Under the pieces are notes generated by a model. That model did not search any database and had not been told where the DNA came from. It was given only the letters and a program-made list of their open reading frames with translations. Both the position numbers and the translations under genes were made by a program. This document shows, piece by piece, positions 19,543 to 51,570 of a stretch of DNA of 64,000 nucleotides (position 1 is its first letter; each line of letters starts with the position of its first letter). The stretch is from the NCBI GenBank assembly GCA_963842525.1, contig CAWJGT010000034.1, forward strand, positions 1-64,000, in the 5' to 3' direction. The stretch is from an uncultured Holophagales bacterium (GTDB lineage: Bacteria > Acidobacteriota > Thermoanaerobaculia > Multivoradales > UBA5704).

Positions 19543-20161
19543 ATGTCCTTGCGTTCCAAGCCACGCGGTCGCAGAGGCTCGGGCTGCGCGCCCGGGGGTG
19601 GTATGGGGCCGGAAGAAAACTTCCGGCAGATCTTCGCGGATAACTACAGGAAGGTCTTCCTCTTCTTCGTCCGGCGCGGGTTTTCGGACGACGAATGCGA
19701 GGACCTCGCGCAGGACGTTTTCCTGCGTGTCTTCAAGCACTTCGACACCTTCCGCGGCGAGGCCCGGATGGAAACCTGGCTGTTCCAGATCGCGGCGAAC
19801 CTCTATCGCAACACCCTCCGCGGCCGGGCCGCCCTCAAGCGCCATGTCCTGGAGGTCACCCTCGACGAAACCGTCCACGAGGCCGTTTCGTCCGAGCTTC
19901 CGGTCCATGACACGGCCGAGCCTGGACCGTTCGAATGGGTGCTGTCGCGGGAGCGGTCGAAAATCCTGCACGGCGCGATCGAAGAGCTCCCCCTGCCAGA
20001 TGCGCCGGTGCCTCCTCCTGCGCGTCGACCAGGACCTGAAGTACCGCGAGATCGCGGAGCTCCTGCGGATCTCCATCGAGACCGTCAAGGCCCATCTCTT
20101 CCAGGCCCGCCAGCTCCTCCGGGTCCGGCTCGAGACCGATTTCGCGGAAGAGCGGTGGTGA
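19543..20161 (+). CDS. ECF sigma factor (frameshift near 19990)
   Basis: EDLAQDVFLRV, ETWLFQIAAN; region 4 LKYREIAELL.ISIETVKAHL; GGAGG RBS. Confidence 0.88.
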
Positions 20162-20243: not shown

Positions 20244-20879
20244 ATGCCAGCCGAGCCCGGTGGGAAGCCGCAGGAGGCCTGCGAGTCGACCTGTGAGTCT
20301 GGAGAGCGGTGGATCGAGCAGTGGAGAAGGGGGGGCGACCGCGACGAGTGCCTGCGGCAGCTCTTCACGGCCCACTTCCGGAAAGTCTTCACCTTCTTCT
20401 CCGGGAAGGGCTTCCCGGAGGAGGAATGCCACGACCTCGCCCAGGAGACCTTCCTCCGGGCCTTCACCCGCCTCGAAACCTTCCGCGGCGACGCGCGCTT
20501 CACGACCTGGCTGTTCCAGATCATGGAGAACGTCCGCCGCAACGCCCTCCGCGACCAGACGGCCCAGAAGCGCCAGGGCCAGGAAGTGCCGCTCGAGGTC
20601 TTCGCCGATCCGGAATCGCCCGCCGAGATGGCCCGGATCCTCGCCATCGACGAGCCCGGCCCCCTCGAACGCATCCTGGCCTGGGAGCGGTCGAGCCGCC
20701 TCCGCGAGGCCATCCAAGGGCTCCCCAACCAGATGCGCCGCTGCGTCGAGCTCCGGGTCGAGCAGGACCTCAAGTACCGTGACATCGCCGATGTCCTGGA
20801 AGTCTCGATCGACACCGTGAAAGCGCATCTCTTCCAGGCCCGCCACATCCTGCGCGGCGAGCTTGGCGATCCGGCATGA
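20244..20879 (+). CDS. ECF sigma factor (paralog of the upstream gene)
   Basis: DLAQETFLRA, TTWLFQI, LPNQMRRC, LKYRDIA..L.VSIDTVKAHL. Confidence 0.92.
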   Translation: MPAEPGGKPQEACESTCESGERWIEQWRRGGDRDECLRQLFTAHFRKVFTFFSGKGFPEEECHDLAQETFLRAFTRLETFRGDARFTTWLFQIMENVRRNALRDQTAQKRQGQEVPLEVFADPESPAEMARILAIDEPGPLERILAWERSSRLREAIQGLPNQMRRCVELRVEQDLKYRDIADVLEVSIDTVKAHLFQARHILRGELGDPA

Positions 20880-42558: not shown

Positions 42559-43374
42559 TTACACCGGCACGCCGGTCGTCATGCTCAGGTAATAGCCGGT
42601 GATCTCGCCGATGAACGTGCCGACGACCACGACGTAGAGGATGCCCGTGGCAGACTGGTTCGAGCGTTGCCGCGCGCAGTGGAGCGACATGGCGGCGAGC
42701 GGCAGGACGATGGCCAGCCCCCAGAGCAGCCGGAACCAGAAGAAGATCCCCTGCCCCCCGAAGCCGGCGAGGAGGCGCAGGGGATGGGGCTCGACCAGCT
42801 CGTCCACCCCCGCGGCCACGGCCAGGCTGGCTCCCACCGCGGCGAGCCGCAGGAGCGCGGTGCCCAGCAGCACCCAGCAGAAGACCGTGAGATGCCGGAA
42901 GTTGAGCTTCGGAGCCACCAGGTACCAGTGGCCGAGAAGCATGGTAATCAGCGACCACCCGAGCAGGAGGGCCGAGGTCAGCAGGCTTGTGACCGCCAGC
43001 GCCCGCTGGTGGGGGAGCGGGGCGAGCGGCGCGATGAGGTGCGGACCCGCGGTGAGGAGAGTCCCCAGACAGCCGGCCAGCGCGAGCGTCAACGGCCAGC
43101 GGCACAGCCGCCAGCGCTCCCGCCAGATCGCGGCGTAGTAGAGGAGGCTTCCCACCAGCGCGACAGCGAGCGAAGCGGTCCCGAACGCCCGGAGGTCGCC
43201 GAACGGCCGGAATGGGTGGAGCCAGACGACTGCGACGGCGAGCGCGAGCAGGCCCAGAACCACCAGCGCGTTCATCTGGAAGTAGCCGCGCCCGAGGTCG
43301 TCTTCGGGGATCCAGTACAGGGTCGACAGCGAGCCCACGCAGAGGGCCAGGAGGAACAGCAGGAAGATACCCAT
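42559..43374 (-). CDS. Conserved hypothetical polytopic membrane protein
   Basis: About 8 TM segments; MLLGHWYL..P and NQSATGILY motifs. Confidence 0.75.
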   Translation of the reverse strand: MGIFLLFLLALCVGSLSTLYWIPEDDLGRGYFQMNALVVLGLLALAVAVVWLHPFRPFGDLRAFGTASLAVALVGSLLYYAAIWRERWRLCRWPLTLALAGCLGTLLTAGPHLIAPLAPLPHQRALAVTSLLTSALLLGWSLITMLLGHWYLVAPKLNFRHLTVFCWVLLGTALLRLAAVGASLAVAAGVDELVEPHPLRLLAGFGGQGIFFWFRLLWGLAIVLPLAAMSLHCARQRSNQSATGILYVVVVGTFIGEITGYYLSMTTGVPV

Positions 43375-43486
43375 GGGGGGTGCAATCTTAGCAGCTCGAC
43401 CGGCGTTACGCGGGATGAGGGAAAACAAGCCTCCGCTTCGTGTTTTCCACATCATGCGAGCCCTGGAACGCAACGCGTCTTTGATC

Positions 43487-43515
43487 TGGACAGGGGGCGA
43501 GCAGGGTGCTAGCCT
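43487..43515 (+). promoter_or_regulatory. Putative promoter of ECF-TPR module 1
   Basis: TGGACA-N17-TAGCCT with extended -10; paralleled at 45906-45934. Confidence 0.5.
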
Positions 43516-43546
43516 ACCCGGAGTCAGCGGACGACATCTCGGCGAT

Positions 43547-44095
43547 ATGGCAACTTTGGATCATCCTGAACTGCGGGAATCGCTCAACAATCTACTGAAG
43601 ACTTCCCGTCCCAGGCTGGAACGGGTTCTCAGGAACTTCGAGGTGCCTCCGGAAGATGCAGAAGACATCCTCCAGGATGCGCAGTTGACCCTGCTGTACA
43701 AGTGGGACAAGGTGCGCAGCCCCGAGAGCTGGCTGGTCGGGACGGTCAAGAAGAAGTGCATCATGTACTGGCGCAAGCGCCGGGGCAGCCTCTGCGAGGC
43801 TGTGGACACGGCCATCCTCGACCTGCTCGCCATGCCCCAGGCGCCCGACCAGGAGAAGACCGAGCTGACCTGCGACCTGAACCGGGTGCTGTCGAAGCTG
43901 TCGTCGCGGTGCCGTTCCCTCCTGAAGCTCCGGTATGGGCTGGGATACGGCCCGACCGAAGTGGCGGAGCAGATGGGATACCAGACCTCCAGCATCCGCA
44001 AGGTCACCAACCGCTGCCTGGCAGCCCTGACCCGCCAGCTCCTGGCCGTCGGATTCCGGGGTGAGCCAGAGGAAAAGCCCGAAAAAGATGCGTGA
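43547..44095 (+). CDS. ECF-type sigma factor (module 1)
   Basis: PPEDAEDILQD, WLVGTV, LSSRCRSLLKLRY..G.GPTEVAEQMG. Confidence 0.88.
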   Translation: MATLDHPELRESLNNLLKTSRPRLERVLRNFEVPPEDAEDILQDAQLTLLYKWDKVRSPESWLVGTVKKKCIMYWRKRRGSLCEAVDTAILDLLAMPQAPDQEKTELTCDLNRVLSKLSSRCRSLLKLRYGLGYGPTEVAEQMGYQTSSIRKVTNRCLAALTRQLLAVGFRGEPEEKPEKDA

Positions 44096-45434
44096 GCCGC
44101 ACCCGATGCACCCGATGCACCCGAAGACCGCCAAGCTGCTCGAGCTCGGCCAGGGGCGTGTATCGCGCCGCCAGGCCCGCAGGATCGTGCGCCACCTCCT
44201 CGCCGGCTGCGAAGCCTGCAGCGAATTCCTCGCCCGCATCCTGCCGGTCTCCAATCCTGCCGGAACCGATTATGCCCAGGCTTTCGAAGCCGCGCAGCGC
44301 AACGTTTCGGCGCGGGCCGCAGCGATGGCCGCGGAGCGCGCCGAAGCCCGCGAGCTGCTGCGCGAGCTCGCCGTCCAGCCGCTCTACCGCCAGCGGATCC
44401 TGGTGACCGATCAGCCACGGTTCCAGACCTGGGGGCTGTGCGAGCTGCTCCTGGAGGCCTCCCGCGAGTGGGGATTCCAGGACCCCGGCCGCGCCCTGGA
44501 GACGGCCCGTCTCGGGACCAAGCTGGCCGACCGGCTCGACCACGAGACCTATGGCGAGGCCCGGGTGAACGACATGCGCGCTCGCGCCGGGGCCATCCTG
44601 GCCAATGGCGAGCGGATCCTCTGCGACTTCCGGGCGGCGGAGAAGAGCTTCGCGAAGGCCGAGGGCCTGCTGAAGAGTGGCACGGGCGACCCCTTGGAGC
44701 GCGCCGGCCTGCTCCTCCTCAAGGCCTCCCTGTACGGCCATCGGCATCGCTTCAAGGAGGCCTTCCGCCTGCTGGACCGCGTGGTCCTCACCGCCCGCCG
44801 CTGCAACGATCTCCACCTGTGCGGCAAGGCCCTGATCACCAAGGGCTTCCTCGCCGGGATGGATCACGAGCCCGAGCTGTCCATCCGGCTCCTGCAGGAG
44901 GGCGCTCCGCTCGTTGATCCGGCGCTGGAGCCGCGGCTCCTGGTCGCCGCCTACCACAACCTCATCCTGGGGCTCAACGAAGCGGGCCGGCCGCAGGATG
45001 CGGGCGGCCTGCTGGAGCAGACGCGCGCTCTGTACGTCCACGTCGGGGACCGCATGAACCTGATCCGGCTCGGCTGGCTGGAGGGCAAGATCGCCCTGGC
45101 GCTCGGCCGCCTCGAAGAGGCGGAGACGCTGTTCCTGGCAACCCGCCGCGAGCTGATCGACCGCGAGCTCGCCTACGACACGGCGCTGCTCTCGCTCGAC
45201 CAGGCGCAGGTCTACGCCCGGCAGCAACGCTGGCCCGAGATGCGGCGCCTCGCCGAAGAGATGCTCCCGATCTTCCAGTCGCGCCAGATCCAGCGCGAGG
45301 TCGTCTCGACCCTCATCGTCTTTCAGCGGGCGGTGGCCCTGGAGAGGGTCACCGTGGGGATGCTCCAGGAGCTGGCCGAGTACCTCGAAGAGAGCCGTAC
45401 CACCCCCGGGCTGCAGCCCCGGGATCCGTTCTGA
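44088..45434 (+). CDS. Zinc-finger anti-sigma-like N-terminus + TPR protein (module 1)
   Basis: HP...RHLLAGCEAC then helical TPR-like repeats; overlaps the ECF stop. Confidence 0.8.
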   Translation: MREPHPMHPMHPKTAKLLELGQGRVSRRQARRIVRHLLAGCEACSEFLARILPVSNPAGTDYAQAFEAAQRNVSARAAAMAAERAEARELLRELAVQPLYRQRILVTDQPRFQTWGLCELLLEASREWGFQDPGRALETARLGTKLADRLDHETYGEARVNDMRARAGAILANGERILCDFRAAEKSFAKAEGLLKSGTGDPLERAGLLLLKASLYGHRHRFKEAFRLLDRVVLTARRCNDLHLCGKALITKGFLAGMDHEPELSIRLLQEGAPLVDPALEPRLLVAAYHNLILGLNEAGRPQDAGGLLEQTRALYVHVGDRMNLIRLGWLEGKIALALGRLEEAETLFLATRRELIDRELAYDTALLSLDQAQVYARQQRWPEMRRLAEEMLPIFQSRQIQREVVSTLIVFQRAVALERVTVGMLQELAEYLEESRTTPGLQPRDPF

Positions 45435-45640
45435 CGGGCGATCCCCGCCGCCCTCCGCAGTCCGCAGTCTTCCACGGGCGAGGGTGATCCCCCGCCCTTC
45501 CCTTGATCTCACGGCGCGAGCGTCCGCGCAAAAATCCTTGTCTCTGGCTCTTCAGCAGCGGCAACCTTACCTTGGAGCCAGTGTGCTCAACCGCCCCGCG
45601 GTCCGCCACCGCGGAAGGCAGCTTGAAAAGGAGAAGCTTC

Positions 45641-45853
45641 ATGTCCCAGCCCTCAGCTCGCCGGTTTGCCGCGGTGCTCTCCCTCGCCGCCGCCCTCTTC
45701 TTCCTTCCGGTGTCGGATTCGCAGGCCGCGCAACGCCGGCCGCGTGGAGAGTCCGACGTTCTGGACCGCGTCGAGATCCGGGTCCACTCGCTCTGGCGCT
45801 CGATCGTCAGCGTCTGGCAGATGGTCGGTGTCCGGATCGACGACAACGGGTAG
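45641..45853 (+). CDS. Small secreted peptide precursor (70 aa) ending VGVRIDDNG
   Basis: AAGGAG RBS; RR + hydrophobic h-region + SQA|A signal peptide; GC-rich third codon positions. Confidence 0.78.
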   Translation: MSQPSARRFAAVLSLAAALFFLPVSDSQAAQRRPRGESDVLDRVEIRVHSLWRSIVSVWQMVGVRIDDNG

Positions 45854-45905
45854 GGCAGGGTCCAGGGCGTAAGGCTCTCTGAAATCCCCGAGGAGGGGCA
45901 GGTGC

Positions 45906-45934
45906 TGGACTTGGGTCCAGAAGGGTGGTAGTGT
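45906..45934 (+). promoter_or_regulatory. Putative promoter of ECF-TPR module 2
   Basis: TGGACT-N17-TAGTGT sharing AGGGTG-S-TAG with module 1. Confidence 0.5.
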
Positions 45935-45963
45935 GTCAGCCGCTGAAGATCCTCCCTCGGAAG

Positions 45964-46503
45964 ATGAGCGCACTGGATCACTCTCAGGTCGAAGCCTCGC
46001 TCGAAGGTTTTCTGAGGAACGTTCGCCCCCGCTTGAAATCGCTGTTCCAGCGCTACAGCATCCCGCCCCAGGACACGGAGGACATCCTCCAGCAGGCCCT
46101 GCTGGCCTTCCTCTACCAGCGCCGGAGCATCCGGGATCCCGAGGCCTGGCTCCTCGGAACCGTGAGGAACAAGTGCCTTCTGTTCTGGAGGAGCCACCGG
46201 CGGCAGCTCTACCAGACCGTGGATGCGGCCGTGCTCGAGTGCATGGCCGCCCCTCTGCCGCCGGAGCAGGAGACCTCGGACCTGCGCCGCGATCTGGCGA
46301 GCGCCCTCGAGGCATTGCCGGAGCGTTGCCGTTCCCTCCTCTGGCTGCGCTACAACTATGGCTACGAGCCGCCCGAAGTTGCCGATCGCCTCGGTTATAG
46401 TCCAAGCAGCATCAGCAAGGTCACCCAGAGATGTCTCGCCGCCCTGACACGACGTCTGGTGCTCAGGGGTGTTCTACGACGCGGGAAGATGGACCCCACA
46501 TGA
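45964..46503 (+). CDS. ECF-type sigma factor (module 2)
   Basis: Paralog of 43547: RPRL, PPQDTEDILQQ, WLLGTV, LPERCRSLL.LRY. Confidence 0.88.
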   Translation: MSALDHSQVEASLEGFLRNVRPRLKSLFQRYSIPPQDTEDILQQALLAFLYQRRSIRDPEAWLLGTVRNKCLLFWRSHRRQLYQTVDAAVLECMAAPLPPEQETSDLRRDLASALEALPERCRSLLWLRYNYGYEPPEVADRLGYSPSSISKVTQRCLAALTRRLVLRGVLRRGKMDPT

Positions 46504-47870
46504 CACAAGACCATCCGACACAGGAAGTCTTGGAAAGCTTCGTCCACGGCCGGCTTTCGCCTGTCGAGATGAAGCGGGTGTCTTGTCACCTCCTGTCCGG
46601 TTGCACCTACTGCCGGTCGAACGCGTCTCGGTTCTGGGAAGCTGAAGAAGGGGGACGCCGGATACGCGGGAGACCTTCCCGAAGCGAGGGAAGAGCGCGA
46701 CGGCTATGACGAGGTCTTCGATCGCGTCTTCCAGAAGGTGTCCCTCCGGGAGAGCGATCTGAGCCGGGAGCGAGCAGCGGCGCGGCATCTCTACGACGAG
46801 CTCATGCAGCATCCCGTCCCTCGCCAGCATCTCCTCGTCGCCAACAGCACCCGTTTCCGCAACCCGTCGCTCTGCGAGCTCCTGATCGAGGAGAGCCATG
46901 ATGCCGGGTTTCAGGACCCGTCCCGGGCTTTCGAGCTGGCCCGTCTCGGCACTGCGGTCGCCGAGCTGCTGACCAGAGAGACCTGCGGCGGGCTCGGAGT
47001 CTTGAACAGTCTCCGGTGCCGGGTCTGGGCCCAACTGGGTAATGCGCTCCGGATCCAGGGCAAACTCGCCGCGGCGGAAAACGCCTTCGCGACAGTCCAG
47101 GAGTGGATCGAAGAGGAGGAGGTCGACACTCTCGGCACCGCGCGCGTGCTCGACCTCAAGGCCTCCTTGCGCAGAGATCAGAGACGCTTCGCCGAGGCGG
47201 GTGCAGCCTGGATCGGGTCATCTCCATCTATCAGGGTCTCGGGCAATGGAGCCTGCTCGGGCGTACCCTGAAGCAAAAGTCGATGGTCTGTGGTGAGACC
47301 GGGGACCTGGAAGAGGAGATGACGCTCTTGCGGCGAGCTCTCGAGATGCTCGATCCGGAGGAGGAGCCACGGACCTTCCTGGCAGCCCGCCACAACCTCA
47401 TCGTCTCGCTGAACGAGGCCGGCCGCTCCCGCGAAGCCTATGCGCTCCTCTTTCACACCCGCCCCCTCTATCTGAAGATGGGGGACAAGATGACCCTGCT
47501 CCGCCTGCGCTGGCTCGAAGGCGATGTTGCGAGCGGCCTCGGCCGGGTCGAGCAGGCCGAGGTGGCGTTCCGCGAGGTTCGCAAAGCTTTCCTTGACCTC
47601 GGTCTCGATTACGATGCCGCCGTCGCCTCGCTCGACCTCGCAGAGGCTTACGTCCTGCAGGGCAAGACGGCCGAGGTCCGATGTCTGGCGGAGGAGATGC
47701 TCGACGTCTTCCAGGCCCGCGACATCCATCGCGAAGCCTTGGGGGCCCTCGCTGTCTTCTGTGCCGCGGCCCAGATGGAAAACGCAGGGGTCGGCCTGAT
47801 CCAGGAGGTCTCCAGCTTCCTGAAGCGGGTGCGGAACAATCCGGACCTTCACTTCACACCGCCCTCATGA
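46500..47870 (+). CDS. Zinc-finger anti-sigma-like N-terminus + TPR protein (module 2; frameshifts near 46670 and 47205)
   Basis: ATGA overlap with the ECF; DHP...CHLLSGCTYC; LCELL.E.S..GFQDP, EPR..L.A.HNL, RLRWLEG, YD.A..SLD shared with module 1. Confidence 0.8.
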
Positions 47871-47903
47871 ACCGGTGGTCGCCGGATTGCATGACAAGGC
47901 GGC

Positions 47904-49149
47904 ATGGCGGATGCTCCCAAGCTCCTGGTCCTCGGATGCGGTTTCGGCGGTTACTCCCTGCTGGCGAACCTGAAGCGCAGGCACTGGAGCATCACCCTCC
48001 TCAGCCCGCGGAACTACTTCCTCTTCACCCCTCTGCTCCCTTCAGCCGTCAGCGGCAGCGTCGAGTTTCGCAGCATCCTGGAACCGGTCCGTCGCCGGCT
48101 CCGCGACGTCCGCCTGATCGAGGGGTACGCCGAGTCGGTGGACTGGGAGACCCGGACCGTCTCCTGCTCGGCCGCCGTCGGAGAAGAACGGTTCAGCCTG
48201 CCGTATGACGTCCTGGTCCTCGCCGTCGGCGCGGCGGTGGGGGACTACGGAGTGCCGGGCGTCGCCGAGCACGCCCTGAAGCTCGCCAGCGTGGAAGACG
48301 CCCAGGCGATCCGGCGGAGGATCCTGGAGCAGATCGCCAGAGCGGAGGTCCCGGCCCTCACCCCGGAGCAGATCCGCGAGCGTCTCACCTTCGTCGTCTG
48401 CGGCGGGGGGCCCACCGGCGTCGAGGCGGCGGCGGAGATCCACGACCTGCTGGACGAGGAGCTGCACCTCCAGCTTCCCCGAGCTCGCCCCGCAGGCCCG
48501 GGTGGTCCTCGTCGAAGCGCTCGAGCGCCTCCTCACCAGCTTCGACGAGGCGCTGGCGCAGTACACCCTGCGTCATTTCGCCCGCGAAGGGATCGAGGTG
48601 CGCACGCGGACCAAGGTGACGGCGATCGAGCCCGGCGCCGTCGTCCTGGAGGATGGAGAGCGCATCCGCTGTGGCCTGGTCCTCTGGGCGGGGGGCAACG
48701 CGCCCGTGCCGTTCCTCCGCGCCCTTGATGGCGTGGAGCTCGACCGCCGCGGCCGGCTGCGGATCGACGACCATCTCCGCATCCCGGGCCGGCTCGACGT
48801 CTATGCTCTCGGCGACTGTGCGGCGGTGGGGGAGCCGCCGCTGCCGGCCACGGCCCAGGTGGCGCAGCAGCAGGGGAAGTACCTCGCCCGCGCCCTCGGT
48901 CATCGGCGCGAGGGACGCGAGGGGCGGCCTGTCGCGCCGTTCCGATTCAAGGCCTCCGGCATGCTGGCCTACATCGGCGGCGGCCAGGCGCTGGCGGATC
49001 TGCCACAGGTCAAATGGAGCGGCCGGGCCGCCTGGCTCTTCTGGCGCTCCGTCTACCTCACCAAGCTGGTCAGCCCGGCCAACAAGATCAAGGTCCTCTT
49101 CGACTGGATGAAGGCGAGGCTCTTCGGCCGCGACATCAGCAGGTTCTGA
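47904..49149 (+). CDS. ndh: Type II NADH dehydrogenase (frameshift near 48470)
   Basis: GCGFGG, FLFTPLLP, GGGPTGVE.AAE, ALGDCA, PATAQVAQQQG. Confidence 0.92.
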
Positions 49150-49155
49150 GATCGC

Positions 49156-51570
49156 TCACGTCTTGACGCCGAGGAAGAGATAGCCGGCGAGGATCGCGAA
49201 GACCGTGCCGGGGCTCCACACCGCGACGGCGGGGGGCAGAGCCCCGGTCTCGCCGAGGGTCGTGAAGAAGGCGTAGACGCCCAGGAACACCATCCCCAAA
49301 ACAACCGAGACGCCGATCCCGTAGAGCGCTCCCTGCCGGCCGAGGCGGAAGGCGAAGGGGAGGCCCACCAGGGCCATGATCAGCGAGACGACGGGAAAGG
49401 CGATCTTGTTGTAGAGCTGCACCTTGAGCTCGGGCACCGGCTGGCCGCTTCCTTCGAGCTCCTGGATGTACTCCCTGAGCTCGCCATAGCGCATCTGCTC
49501 CGGTGGCCGGATCTCGGAGTCGAAGTAGTCCGGCGTCTCCGGATAGCGGACGATCTTCGGCGTCTCGAAGCGCTGGTAGTCCGTCATTTCGACGCCGTCG
49601 ACCGTGCGGGCCCAGCCGTTGGAGAACACCCAGGCATCCCCGATGTACTGCGCTGTCTCGGCAAAGAGCCGGCGGGTCAGACGGTGGCTCGCGTCGAAGT
49701 CGAACACCTGCAGGCGCTGCAGCGTTTGCTGCTTGCGGGTCGTAGTGGATGTAGTTGTAGATGTAGCGCCCCTGCCCGAACAGCCATTGCCGGTCCGCCC
49801 GCCGGTACGTCCGCACCGTCTCCTTGCCGCGGATGCGGTCCTTGAGCTGCGCCACCTTCTCATTGGACGCGGGGAGCACCTTGGTCTCCAGATAGGTGCA
49901 GAAAAGCGACACCAGGAGCGCCGCGGCAAGAGCGGGGACCGCCAGCCGGTAGAGGCTCACTCCCAGCGCCTTGGCGGCGGTGATCTCGTTGGTGCGGGAA
50001 AGGAGGCTGAAGGTCATCAGAGTTGTCACCAGCACCACGACCGGCGCGATCTCGTAGAACATCTGGAGCGAGCCGTACTTGTAGTAGTTGAGGACCAGGA
50101 GCTTGGGCACCTTGTTCTTGAAGATCTCGTCGATCGTCTCGCCCAGGTCGAAGATGATGAAGAGCGAGACGCCCGAAAGCACCACCAGCAGGAAGACCAG
50201 CGAGAACAGGCGCACGACATAGCGGTCCAGCAGGTTGGGGAAGGCGAGGCGCACGCGGGCGATCGGCCGCGGGATGCGGAAGACGAGCTCCTCCGGCGCG
50301 AAGCCCGGGCCTCCCGGGATCGCTGCCGCTCCTCCCGCCGCGCCACGCGCTCGCGGATCCGCTCGCGCCGCTTCTCCCGGCGCATCCCCCGGAGCACCAG
50401 GAGGCCGCCCCAGACGTCCTCCCGCACCCAGCGGTCCAGCCGGCTCATCAGGAGGCTCTTGTCACGATTGCGGCGGATCAGCAGGAAGACGCCGGCGACG
50501 GCAGAGGACAGGTTGGGCGAGCCACATGCCCAGCCAGCCCGGAACGCGGCCGAAGCGCGCCGCCTCCTCGCCGTTGTTGAGCAGCAGGTAGTAGACGATG
50601 AGCACGCCGATCGAAAGGGCGAACCCCGAGGTCTTGCCACCGCGCTTGTTGTTGATCCCGAGGGGCAGGGCGAACAGGCCGAAGACCATGCAGGCGACCG
50701 GGATCGAGAACTTCTTGTGGATCTCGACCTCGGCCAGGTTGCGCTGCTCGTCCGAGGCGGTCGGGTCGTGCTGGAGCTCGCGCAGCTCCTTGAGCGTCAG
50801 CTCCCGGACGCCTTTCGAGACCGAGATCTTGGCCTTCTGCTCGCTGGTGAACTGGTCCTCCAGGACAAGGTCGAGCTCGCGGTGCCGGCTGATCTCGTAG
50901 CGGTCCGGGGCGTTCAGGTCCACCTTGTGGCGGGCGGCGTTGAACAGCCGGAGGACAACCTTCTCGCCGGTCGGGTCGACGAGCACCTCACCCCAGTCGG
51001 CGATGGTGACCTGGCTGGTCGGCTCGCGGACTCGGCGAGGAAGACCCCCTTCCAGCGCTTCTCGCCCGGCGGCACCTCGAAGACGTAGACCACCTTGCCC
51101 TCCCATTCCTCGTAGAAGACCCGCGGCTGCGACCTGCTGCGAGACTGCTCTGGGTGAGGATCTCGAGCCGGAGCTGCTGGAGGGACTGGTTGCCCCACGG
51201 CAGCGCGTAGACCATCAGCACGATGTTGAGCAGCCGTGAAGAGGGCCGAAAGCAGCAGGATGGGGCGGTAGAGGGTGAGGAGGCTGATGCCGCTGGCCCG
51301 CATGGCAATCAGCTCGCTGTCGGACGACAGCCGGCCCACGGCGATCAGGATGCCGAACAGGAGCGACATCGGCAGCGTGAGGACGACGATGTTCGGCAGG
51401 GTCAGCACCAGCAGCTCGCCGACGATCGAGGCCGGCAGCCCGCGGCGGATGATCATCTCCGCGGACTGGAACAGGAACCGGAGGAGCAGGAGGAAGGTAT
51501 AGACTAGGAACCCGAGCCCGAGCGGGCCCAGGATCTCCGTGAGGATGTAGCGATCGAGACGCTTCAGCAC
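49156..51570 (-). CDS. Fused LptF/LptG LPS export permease (frameshifts)
   Basis: Two LptF/G halves: LDRYIL.E...RLSSDSELIAMRASG and LDRYV...LSRTNEITAAKALG. Confidence 0.88.

Follow-up and report, generated by a model that had tools for sequence, protein, structure and literature searches.

A peptide gene family beside soluble zinc anti-sigma proteins with tetratricopeptide repeats: a candidate peptide-gated sigma factor module in an acidobacterium

Introduction

Could a bacterium outside the Firmicutes control a sigma factor through a gene-encoded peptide? The question is raised by a locus of five + strand genes in the window, by which we mean the whole 64,000-nucleotide stretch analysed here, the first 64 kb of contig C34 in the genome of an uncultured Holophagales bacterium (9.95 Mb in 34 contigs, 67% GC). 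The genes encode two sigma factors of the extracytoplasmic function (ECF) type, two proteins with tetratricopeptide repeats (TPRs) and one small peptide, in the order ECF1-TPR1-PEP-ECF2-TPR2. An earlier note, made from the sequence alone, had described this order and proposed a peptide-signalling circuit in which a TPR receptor acts on an ECF sigma factor through an anti-sigma domain. The observation proved largely right apart from frameshifts in TPR2, and was in that sense partly confirmed; the interpretation is partly supported. From the evidence below we consider it evenly balanced whether PEP-ECF2-TPR2 is a sigma/anti-sigma module gated by the peptide, with the anti-sigma factor serving as a cytoplasmic peptide receptor.

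Signalling by peptides that bind TPR receptors in the cytoplasm is generally assigned to the Firmicutes. Known ways of inactivating ECF anti-sigma factors are proteolysis, redox change, partner switching and conformational change; inactivation by a dedicated gene-encoded peptide is not known to occur. Close homologs of the window's proteins carry the label Thermoanaerobaculia, and the MlaD and LptF/G genes adjoining the locus are consistent with a diderm.

Results and discussion

A family of small peptide genes linked to TPR genes

PEP (45641-45853, + strand) has an AAGGAG 8 nt 5' of its ATG and encodes a 70-aa pre-peptide that begins like a signal peptide, contains a Trp-rich amphipathic segment and ends in GVRIDDNG directly before the stop codon. 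Signal peptides were judged by eye and with a simple rule that asks for a basic N-region, 10 or more hydrophobic residues and an A-x-A-like site. Homologs (E ≤ 5e-5) occur in 8 other genomes. The orthologs keep the signal peptide and the Trp-rich stretch and end in G-x-R-I/M-D-D/G-N-G, usually followed by the stop; the 9 aligned sequences all share the D, N and G of the tail, and five of them, the window's included, stop right after DDNG or DGNG. Both the gene, a small open reading frame (ORF), and its C-terminal motif are conserved. Comparison of PEP and related peptides with Pfam and NCBIfam returned no family, and an ESM Atlas search returned only unnamed Acidobacteriota clusters.

A signal-like N-terminus and a C-terminal [ILVMFT]-D-[PDH]-[NDH]-G motif occur together in 31 small ORFs across the genome. 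All except two of these (29/31) lie within 2 kb of a TPR paralog, a distance that takes in 4.7% of the genome, and nearly all of those near TPR loci are upstream on the same strand. Peptide genes of this kind are linked to the TPR family across the genome. In addition, 22 of the 29 loci found in relatives through weak similarity to PEP contain a TPR homolog. The precursors carry one to four near-identical units of the form x-x-G-x-x-[ILM]-D-P-[ND]-G, with at least two in 20 of the 31, and 19 of the 31 end at the motif G. Of the 5 variable residues, 3.46 are shared by units of one precursor and 1.29 by units of different precursors, which is, as far as sequence goes, the pattern of a multi-copy pro-peptide. 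Of 1.84 billion representatives searched with a profile built from 21 peptides, 4013 match at E ≤ 1e-3 and 677 of them at E ≤ 1e-10. Most of the matched peptides are 85-160 aa long, and those inspected are built alike, Cys often flanking the motif on either side. The motif is not confined to small precursors: three long proteins, P0244 (731 aa), P0246 (783 aa) and P0266 (669 aa), have 11-15 matches to the peptide profile, and P0244 contains many x-D-P-N-G-R repeats.

Predicted docking of the peptide tail in the TPR groove

We predicted the complex of TPR2 residues 60-457 with PEP residues 30-72, giving each chain its own alignment and using the intact TPR2-PEP pair of a same-genus genome, G004. 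The prediction reached an ipSAE of 0.72 (runs 0.75, 0.70 and 0.72), with 0.00 for the highest-scoring of three controls. Of 80 solved complexes 58 reach the mark applied to this score, as do 2 of 110 mismatched pairs; this calibration holds only roughly here, as our own alignments were used. At least 66% of contacts were common to the runs, with a pLDDT (predicted per-residue confidence) of 48-50 for the peptide partner. Confident contacts are confined to residues 64-72 of PEP (VGSRMDDNG), which line the inner groove of the superhelix and touch one or two residues of each repeat. The earlier proposal that the TPR protein is a peptide receptor agrees with this result, and the model supports predicted binding of the tail in a conserved TPR groove.

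Groove residues N180, R183, S222, N299, R335 and W338 are conserved in all paralog classes. Two further positions follow the presence of a peptide gene: position 255 is R or K in 17 of 17 peptide-linked paralogs and position 298 is H in 12 of 17, while among seven peptide-less paralogs with a helix-turn-helix (HTH) N-terminus two have R and none has K at position 255, and H is absent from position 298. Similarity between peptide units tracks similarity of the groove even when the remainder of the domain is allowed for (partial Mantel r 0.28, a value reached by 17 of 5000 permutations), although this signal comes largely from one clade of close paralogs.

A ChrR-like zinc anti-sigma domain precedes the superhelix

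TPR1 (44088-45434, + strand) is an intact ORF for a soluble 448-aa protein that consists of a zinc domain, a long helix and a TPR superhelix. Its AlphaFold2 model (pLDDT 87.6, predicted TM-score, pTM, 0.79) has three short helices followed by a long helix at residues 62-95 and the superhelix at residues 99-438; a signal peptide or membrane segment was not seen in either sequence or model. Residues 1-51 form a ChrR-like zinc anti-sigma (ZAS) domain with the putative ligand residues H11, H36, C41 and C44, which are at least 90% conserved among 44 TPR1 relatives and which correspond to the HP...H-x4-C-x2-C motif already described in the earlier note. When a family profile of the N-domain (A4, 12 sequences) was compared with solved structures, the best match was ChrR (2q1z_B, E 4.6e-4), with RslA (3hug_B, E 0.0025) and DdvA (8rlz_A, E 0.005) also found. 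The four conserved H/H/C/C residues align on what we take to be the zinc-ligand positions of ChrR. The zf-HC2 family (PF13490) scores above cut-off on two TPR paralogs and matches 5 of 12 paralog N-domains, at best with E 2.8e-8, and it does not match TPR1 itself, for which Pfam gave just a weak TPR_12 match. The ZAS likeness of TPR1 thus holds at the level of the family and not of the single protein. TPR1, TPR2 and most paralogs have the spacing H-x4-C, a few paralogs H-x3-C. On these sequence comparisons the N-domain is homologous to solved zinc anti-sigma domains, and the earlier assignment stands, with the H-x4-C variant.

The sigma factors lie immediately before these proteins. ECF1 (43547-44095, + strand, 182 aa) matches Sigma70_r2 (E 2e-10) and r4 and scores 63 bits against TIGR02937 (cut-off 42.9); its orthologs in relatives are 87-91% identical. 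ECF2 (45964-46503, + strand, 179 aa) matches Sigma70_r2/r4 and TIGR02937. It is a paralog of ECF1 (50% identity, E 4e-62), and TPR1 aligns with the TPR2 region (46500-47870, + strand) end to end at 34-43% identity, so the two modules are paralogous as had been claimed. The overlap that the earlier note saw between each ECF gene and its TPR gene is clear for TPR2, whose start overlaps the stop of ECF2 in ATGA at 46500-46503. For TPR1 it depends on the start codon: the first ATG (44088) overlaps the ECF1 stop by 8 nt, while the alternative in-frame ATGs at 44106 and 44115 would leave a gap of 10-19 nt. Likewise, a length of about 450 aa fits TPR1 and not TPR2, which is here split over three frames, as discussed below. 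TPR1, TPR2 and their orthologs lie directly after an ECF gene, as is usual for zinc anti-sigma factors and unlike most of the paralogs.

One of many peptide-receptor cassettes

In relatives, PEP lies ~110-170 nt 5' of ECF2 orthologs in 10 loci, with or without TPR1; these ECF2 orthologs (59-78% identity) lie directly 3' of PEP. The picture of a peptide flanked by two equal modules was not upheld: the peptide is always 5' of ECF2-TPR2 and TPR1 may be present or absent. Nor are the two modules simply a duplication, as they are two of about 93 TPR paralog loci. A search of the genome with TPR1 gave 119 matches that merge into 93 loci, which rules out a lone or private duplication of the module. 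The unit is instead peptide, then ECF, then ZAS-TPR, or more often peptide followed by ZAS-TPR without any ECF. In several relatives (loci L013, L014, L015, L016, L017, L019, L022 and L066, some of them without TPR1) a third ECF gene, ~37-53% identical to ECF1 and ECF2 and absent from the window, lies between ECF1 or TPR1 and the peptide gene.

We sorted the 93 loci by N-terminus with crude regular-expression screens, the ZAS pattern being sought in three frames, so that the counts are approximate. A ZAS-type motif is present at 42 loci, of which 23 have an upstream peptide ORF and 19 have none in this screen; a fused XRE-type HTH_31 domain is present at 22, none with an upstream peptide ORF; and the N-terminus is unclear or truncated at 29, of which 10 have one. 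The peptide screen missed the cassette at C1:440621, which has a peptide gene. About 30 cassettes in this genome repeat the receptor-peptide pairing without an ECF, and in about 25 the peptide gene and the receptor gene are the sole components.

The HTH_31-TPR paralogs, with an XRE-type HTH in place of the zinc domain, have a classical build of the kind seen in RRNPP receptors (examples are C3:1044422-1045856, C31:16632-18026, C9:1444849-1446261 and C14:51918-55365); as none of the 22 has a peptide gene upstream, the idea that they share the D-P-N-G peptide gene was dropped. Separately, at 13 of the 93 TPR loci a small free-standing HTH_31 gene is encoded on the opposite strand no more than 900 nt away (for example C24:111715-111891, C25:114097-114270 and C3:1755262-1755435), where a rough estimate from 102 such hits in 10 Mb would give ~3.

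ECF neighbours are rare in the genome. Sigma70_r2 has 51 matches, and only 2 of the 93 TPR loci (4 of 114 tblastn high-scoring segment pairs) lie within 1.5 kb of one, both in the window. The anti-sigma domain of most paralogs is therefore without an obvious partner. ZAS-TPR partners sought for the four other ECF1-like sigma genes of the genome are not present. Five TPR loci have an upstream ORF of ~80-90 aa homologous to the sigma2 domain of ECF1 and ECF2. Such sigma2-only ORFs (78-89 aa, without sigma4) lie between peptide and TPR genes at five places in the source genome, G000: C32:4563-4937(-), C3:154777-155271(+), C9:1148920-1149528(+), C6:228851-229231(+) and upstream of C29:23570. The C32 and C6 copies are alike by eye over most of their length, and these ORFs may be functional mini-proteins rather than remnants.

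Beyond the source genome, the family profile matches 81 of 201 genomes sampled from the class (three of these genomes are unpublished). Among 20 loci in five other genomes chosen by TPR similarity alone, an ECF or sigma2-like gene lies directly upstream of nine, and nine have a small ORF with the motif. The ECF1-TPR1 orthologs of G007 and G038 are preceded by a peptide gene of their own. In the distant G106, all three chosen loci have a different ECF upstream and none has a peptide gene. This is an ECF-associated anti-sigma family that has expanded and been tied to peptide genes within the taxonomic order of the window's organism.

Comparison with known systems

The closest functional parallel is offered by the RRNPP systems (Rap/Phr, NprR/NprX, PlcR/PapR and AimR/AimP), in which, as here, a cytoplasmic TPR-type protein is encoded beside a small pro-peptide gene with a signal peptide and many paralogous pairs can occur in one genome, and in which, as predicted here, the ligand is C-terminal. 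There are clear differences. RRNPP receptors act through an HTH or the Rap three-helix domain, in contrast to the zinc anti-sigma domain found here, and their peptide gene is downstream, whereas here it is upstream and encodes a fixed D-P-N-G end, often in tandem copies. In the RRNPP_detector paper these are treated as Firmicutes systems (PMC10075063); the host here is a diderm acidobacterium. A Foldseek search with the TPR part placed LGN/Pins first and RapJ (4gyo_A) and RapF (3ulq_A) only at ranks 42 and 45, with template modelling (TM) scores of 0.39-0.47 and E ~3e-4, a generic fold likeness; Pfam returned only generic TPR families. Membership of the RRNPP receptors, to which the earlier note had likened these proteins, is not supported by these ranks, and the effector domain departs from the RRNPP definition. 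The best reading, by analogy, is that the system would work like an RRNPP pair. The LGN/Pins match (3ro2_A, E 3.6e-7, TM 0.53/0.68) has a superhelix that holds an extended peptide in its inner groove; as a eukaryotic cell-polarity protein with 16-18% identity it provides a structural analogy only.

On the anti-sigma side the closest system is ChrR-RpoE of Rhodobacter. ChrR, the best solved-structure match of the N-domain profile, is likewise soluble, with an N-terminal H/H/C/C zinc domain and a C-terminal sensor, and its gene directly follows that of the ECF. Its sensor is a cupin, in contrast to the superhelix of 9-10 repeats found here, and its spacing is H-x3-C rather than H-x4-C. The signal for ChrR is singlet oxygen, whereas the signal proposed here is a gene-encoded peptide. 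A more distant likeness is to DdvA-DdvS of Myxococcus xanthus, in which the zinc anti-sigma domain and a sensor with TPRs form one protein, the partner of an ECF sigma factor. DdvA crosses the membrane once, has a periplasmic TPR-CHAT region of ~900 residues and is thought to act by regulated proteolysis (PMC11506125). The proteins here have neither a membrane segment nor a CHAT domain. In ECF42-type factors the TPR repeats that regulate the ECF form a C-terminal extension of the sigma factor itself, and an anti-sigma factor is absent (PMC7826278), in contrast to the separate anti-sigma protein that carries the TPRs here.

In the literature covered, supplementary tables apart, we found no account of a peptide gene paired with a soluble ZAS-TPR anti-sigma factor, nor of the D-P-N-G peptide family. 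This agrees with the earlier remark that the architecture was not known to have been characterised.

A proposed mechanism and its alternatives

In the mechanism that we favour, at even weight, the ChrR-type zinc N-domain of the TPR protein would hold the co-translated ECF sigma factor, the TPR superhelix is predicted to bind the peptide tail x-G-x-R-I/M-D-D-N-G, and occupancy of the groove would alter the grip on the sigma factor. Because PEP has a Sec-type signal peptide, the most likely route of the peptide would be export, trimming to a short C-terminal piece and re-import, by analogy with Rap/Phr, PlcR/PapR and AimR/AimP. The genome encodes three Opp/Dpp-type binding proteins (SBP_bac_5), which permits re-import without showing it. 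One Opp/Dpp-type gene, C9:403765-404823 (-), lies ~3.3 kb from a peptide-receptor cassette at C9:408120-409858. ECF1-TPR1 would be a module of the same kind, with its own peptide gene in other genomes, and the receptor-peptide logic may recur in the ~30 cassettes without ECF. If the prediction holds, the family would link the fields of peptide signalling and ECF anti-sigma factors and supply a class of soluble anti-sigma factors that is otherwise orphan with a ligand open to test. It would also account for the very large expansion of paralogs in this little-studied soil phylum, where one genome has ~93 receptor loci and public data contain 4013 peptide clusters. A fixed D-P-N-G end with a variable head would also offer a handle for studies of specificity and for orthogonal peptide-controlled sigma switches.

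A broader version, which we regard as possible and no better than tentative, is that Thermoanaerobaculia and related Acidobacteriota share a large private peptide language for cell-cell signalling, made up of multi-copy pro-peptides, cognate TPR receptors and an anti-sigma output onto ECFs. Thousands of pro-peptides would each release several short x-x-G-x-x-[ILM]-D-P-N-G signals; the groove would combine a fixed clamp for D-P-N-G with a variable part for the preceding residues; and the output would reach an ECF in cis, as in the window, or act in trans on a few orphan ECFs or sigma2-only mini-proteins. If true, RRNPP-like signalling between cells would be seen here for the first time in a diderm, and a gene-encoded peptide would for the first time be seen to gate an anti-sigma factor.

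Several observations weigh against the peptide-gated mechanism. Only 2 of the 93 TPR loci adjoin a full ECF, and five more adjoin an 80-aa sigma2-only ORF. TPR1 alone gave no zf-HC2 match, and the H-x4-C spacing departs from the canonical H-x3-C. In the predicted complex the low pLDDT of the peptide leaves its own fold uncertain, and since TPR-peptide complexes are common in the Protein Data Bank the score may partly reflect memorised structures; the clade behind the Mantel signal (C29, C32 and C3:155391) consists of kin that are not independent. Cys pairs flank the motif in many family members and suggest disulfide loops adapted to an extracytoplasmic location. The frameshifts of TPR2 in this assembly also count against it. 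Finally, export, cleavage, uptake, and the binding of zinc and of sigma are all putative, and the direction in which the peptide would regulate is conjectural.

The position of the motif can also be read as secretion-coupled feedback, in which the groove would bind the free C-terminus of the peptide in the cytoplasm before export, and export would free the receptor and change its hold on sigma. Tail binding of this sort resembles that by PEX5 and Hop and by the TPR class II chaperones of type III secretion, and needs neither re-import nor cell-cell signalling. We think it unlikely, although it accounts well for a motif at the extreme C-terminus (in 19 of 31 precursors and 5 of 9 aligned PEP sequences), for predicted contacts limited to the last nine residues, for receptor and precursor being made in the same compartment, and for the Cys-flanked motifs, which would be reduced and unconstrained before export. 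It sits poorly with the 20 of 31 precursors that have two or more units, as the internal ones are not C-terminal and fit mainly with release by cleavage. Re-import and pre-export capture are not distinguished by sequence. Alternatively, the small proteins could be exported products of the regulon, perhaps disulfide-looped or cation-binding D-P-N-G proteins, or bacteriocin-like or matrix peptides, with the TPR anti-sigma factor sensing something else and adjacency reflecting a shared operon. ECF operons often begin with target genes, D-x-N/D-G turns are typical of cation-binding loops, and the ECF-ZAS-TPR pairs without a peptide gene at the three G106 loci, the 19 ZAS-type loci without a peptide ORF and the long motif-repeat proteins such as P0244 all fit simple co-regulation. 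What makes it improbable in our view is the complex prediction with its clean controls, the class-specific R/K255 and H298, which follow peptide presence, and the ~25 cassettes made up of just a peptide gene and a receptor gene, without an intervening ECF.

A further alternative is that TPR2 is a decaying pseudogene here, with the second module defunct and only ECF1-TPR1 and the peptide active. Piece 1 of TPR2 (46500-46652, + strand) holds the zinc anti-sigma domain (HP...CHLLSGCTYC), its ATG overlapping the ECF2 stop; piece 2 (46699-47199, + strand) is in a different frame, where the G004 ortholog is continuous; and piece 3 (47208-47870, + strand) returns to the first frame after a one-base gap relative to G004 at ~47199-47208. 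The first shift falls between ~46634 and 46699, in a stretch rich in insertions and deletions (indels) relative to G004. Two frameshifts in one gene, and the finding that 7 of 31 near-full-length paralogs are likewise spread over several frames, as expected for a family with fast turnover, are in keeping with decay. The region downstream is broken as well, however: NDH-2 (47904-49149, + strand) is split at ~48406-48479, its halves covering Pyr_redox_2 profile positions 2-166 and 169-291, and LptF/G (49136-50254, - strand) is split at ~49732-49737, its halves covering profile positions 1-162 and 161-352. LptF/G is normally essential in diderms. With four shifts within 3.8 kb, and a normally essential gene among those hit, the pattern points to assembly indels rather than decay. 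In G004, TPR2 (457 aa) and NDH-2 (411 aa) are intact, and all three pieces of TPR2 are 53-70% identical to it, the frame being otherwise well conserved. From these sequence features local assembly indels are likely to lie behind the breaks in TPR2, NDH-2 and LptF/G, and we regard a pseudogene as quite improbable. Two public soil-metagenome contig sets share 5-9% of the window's words and match exactly at 45500-45759 and 46708-46858, with the frameshift sites outside both. The count of long ORFs, considered as a gauge of assembly quality, is uninformative at 67% GC.

The region upstream of the peptide gene and other features

The only conserved stretch among 8 aligned upstream regions of PEP orthologs is at 45539-45579 (+ strand), a possible promoter block TGTC-N-GCGGCAAC-CTTACCTTGGAG with an ECF-like GGAAAC element, and orthologs of the window's peptide share TGTC-N17-GCGGAAAC-TCT at ~-70 to -79 from the ATG. 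A consensus scan of 43300-48000 found no sigma-70-type promoter and no intrinsic terminator, and no RNA data were listed among the public sequencing runs that match the window. GC-rich hairpins 5' of many peptide genes were set aside, the window copy being unremarkable (z 0.03, with 97 of 200 shuffles as stable).

Among 27 non-redundant upstream regions of peptide genes, the hexamer ACTCTT (often CACTCTT) occurs in six, where 0.18 would be expected, and in five of the six it lies at about -70 to -79 from the ATG. Together with the block shared by the orthologs of the window's peptide, it may mark a shared promoter, possibly of ECF type. Elsewhere in the window, two further Sigma70_r2 matches lie in tandem at 19633-19830 and 20361-20561 (+ strand).

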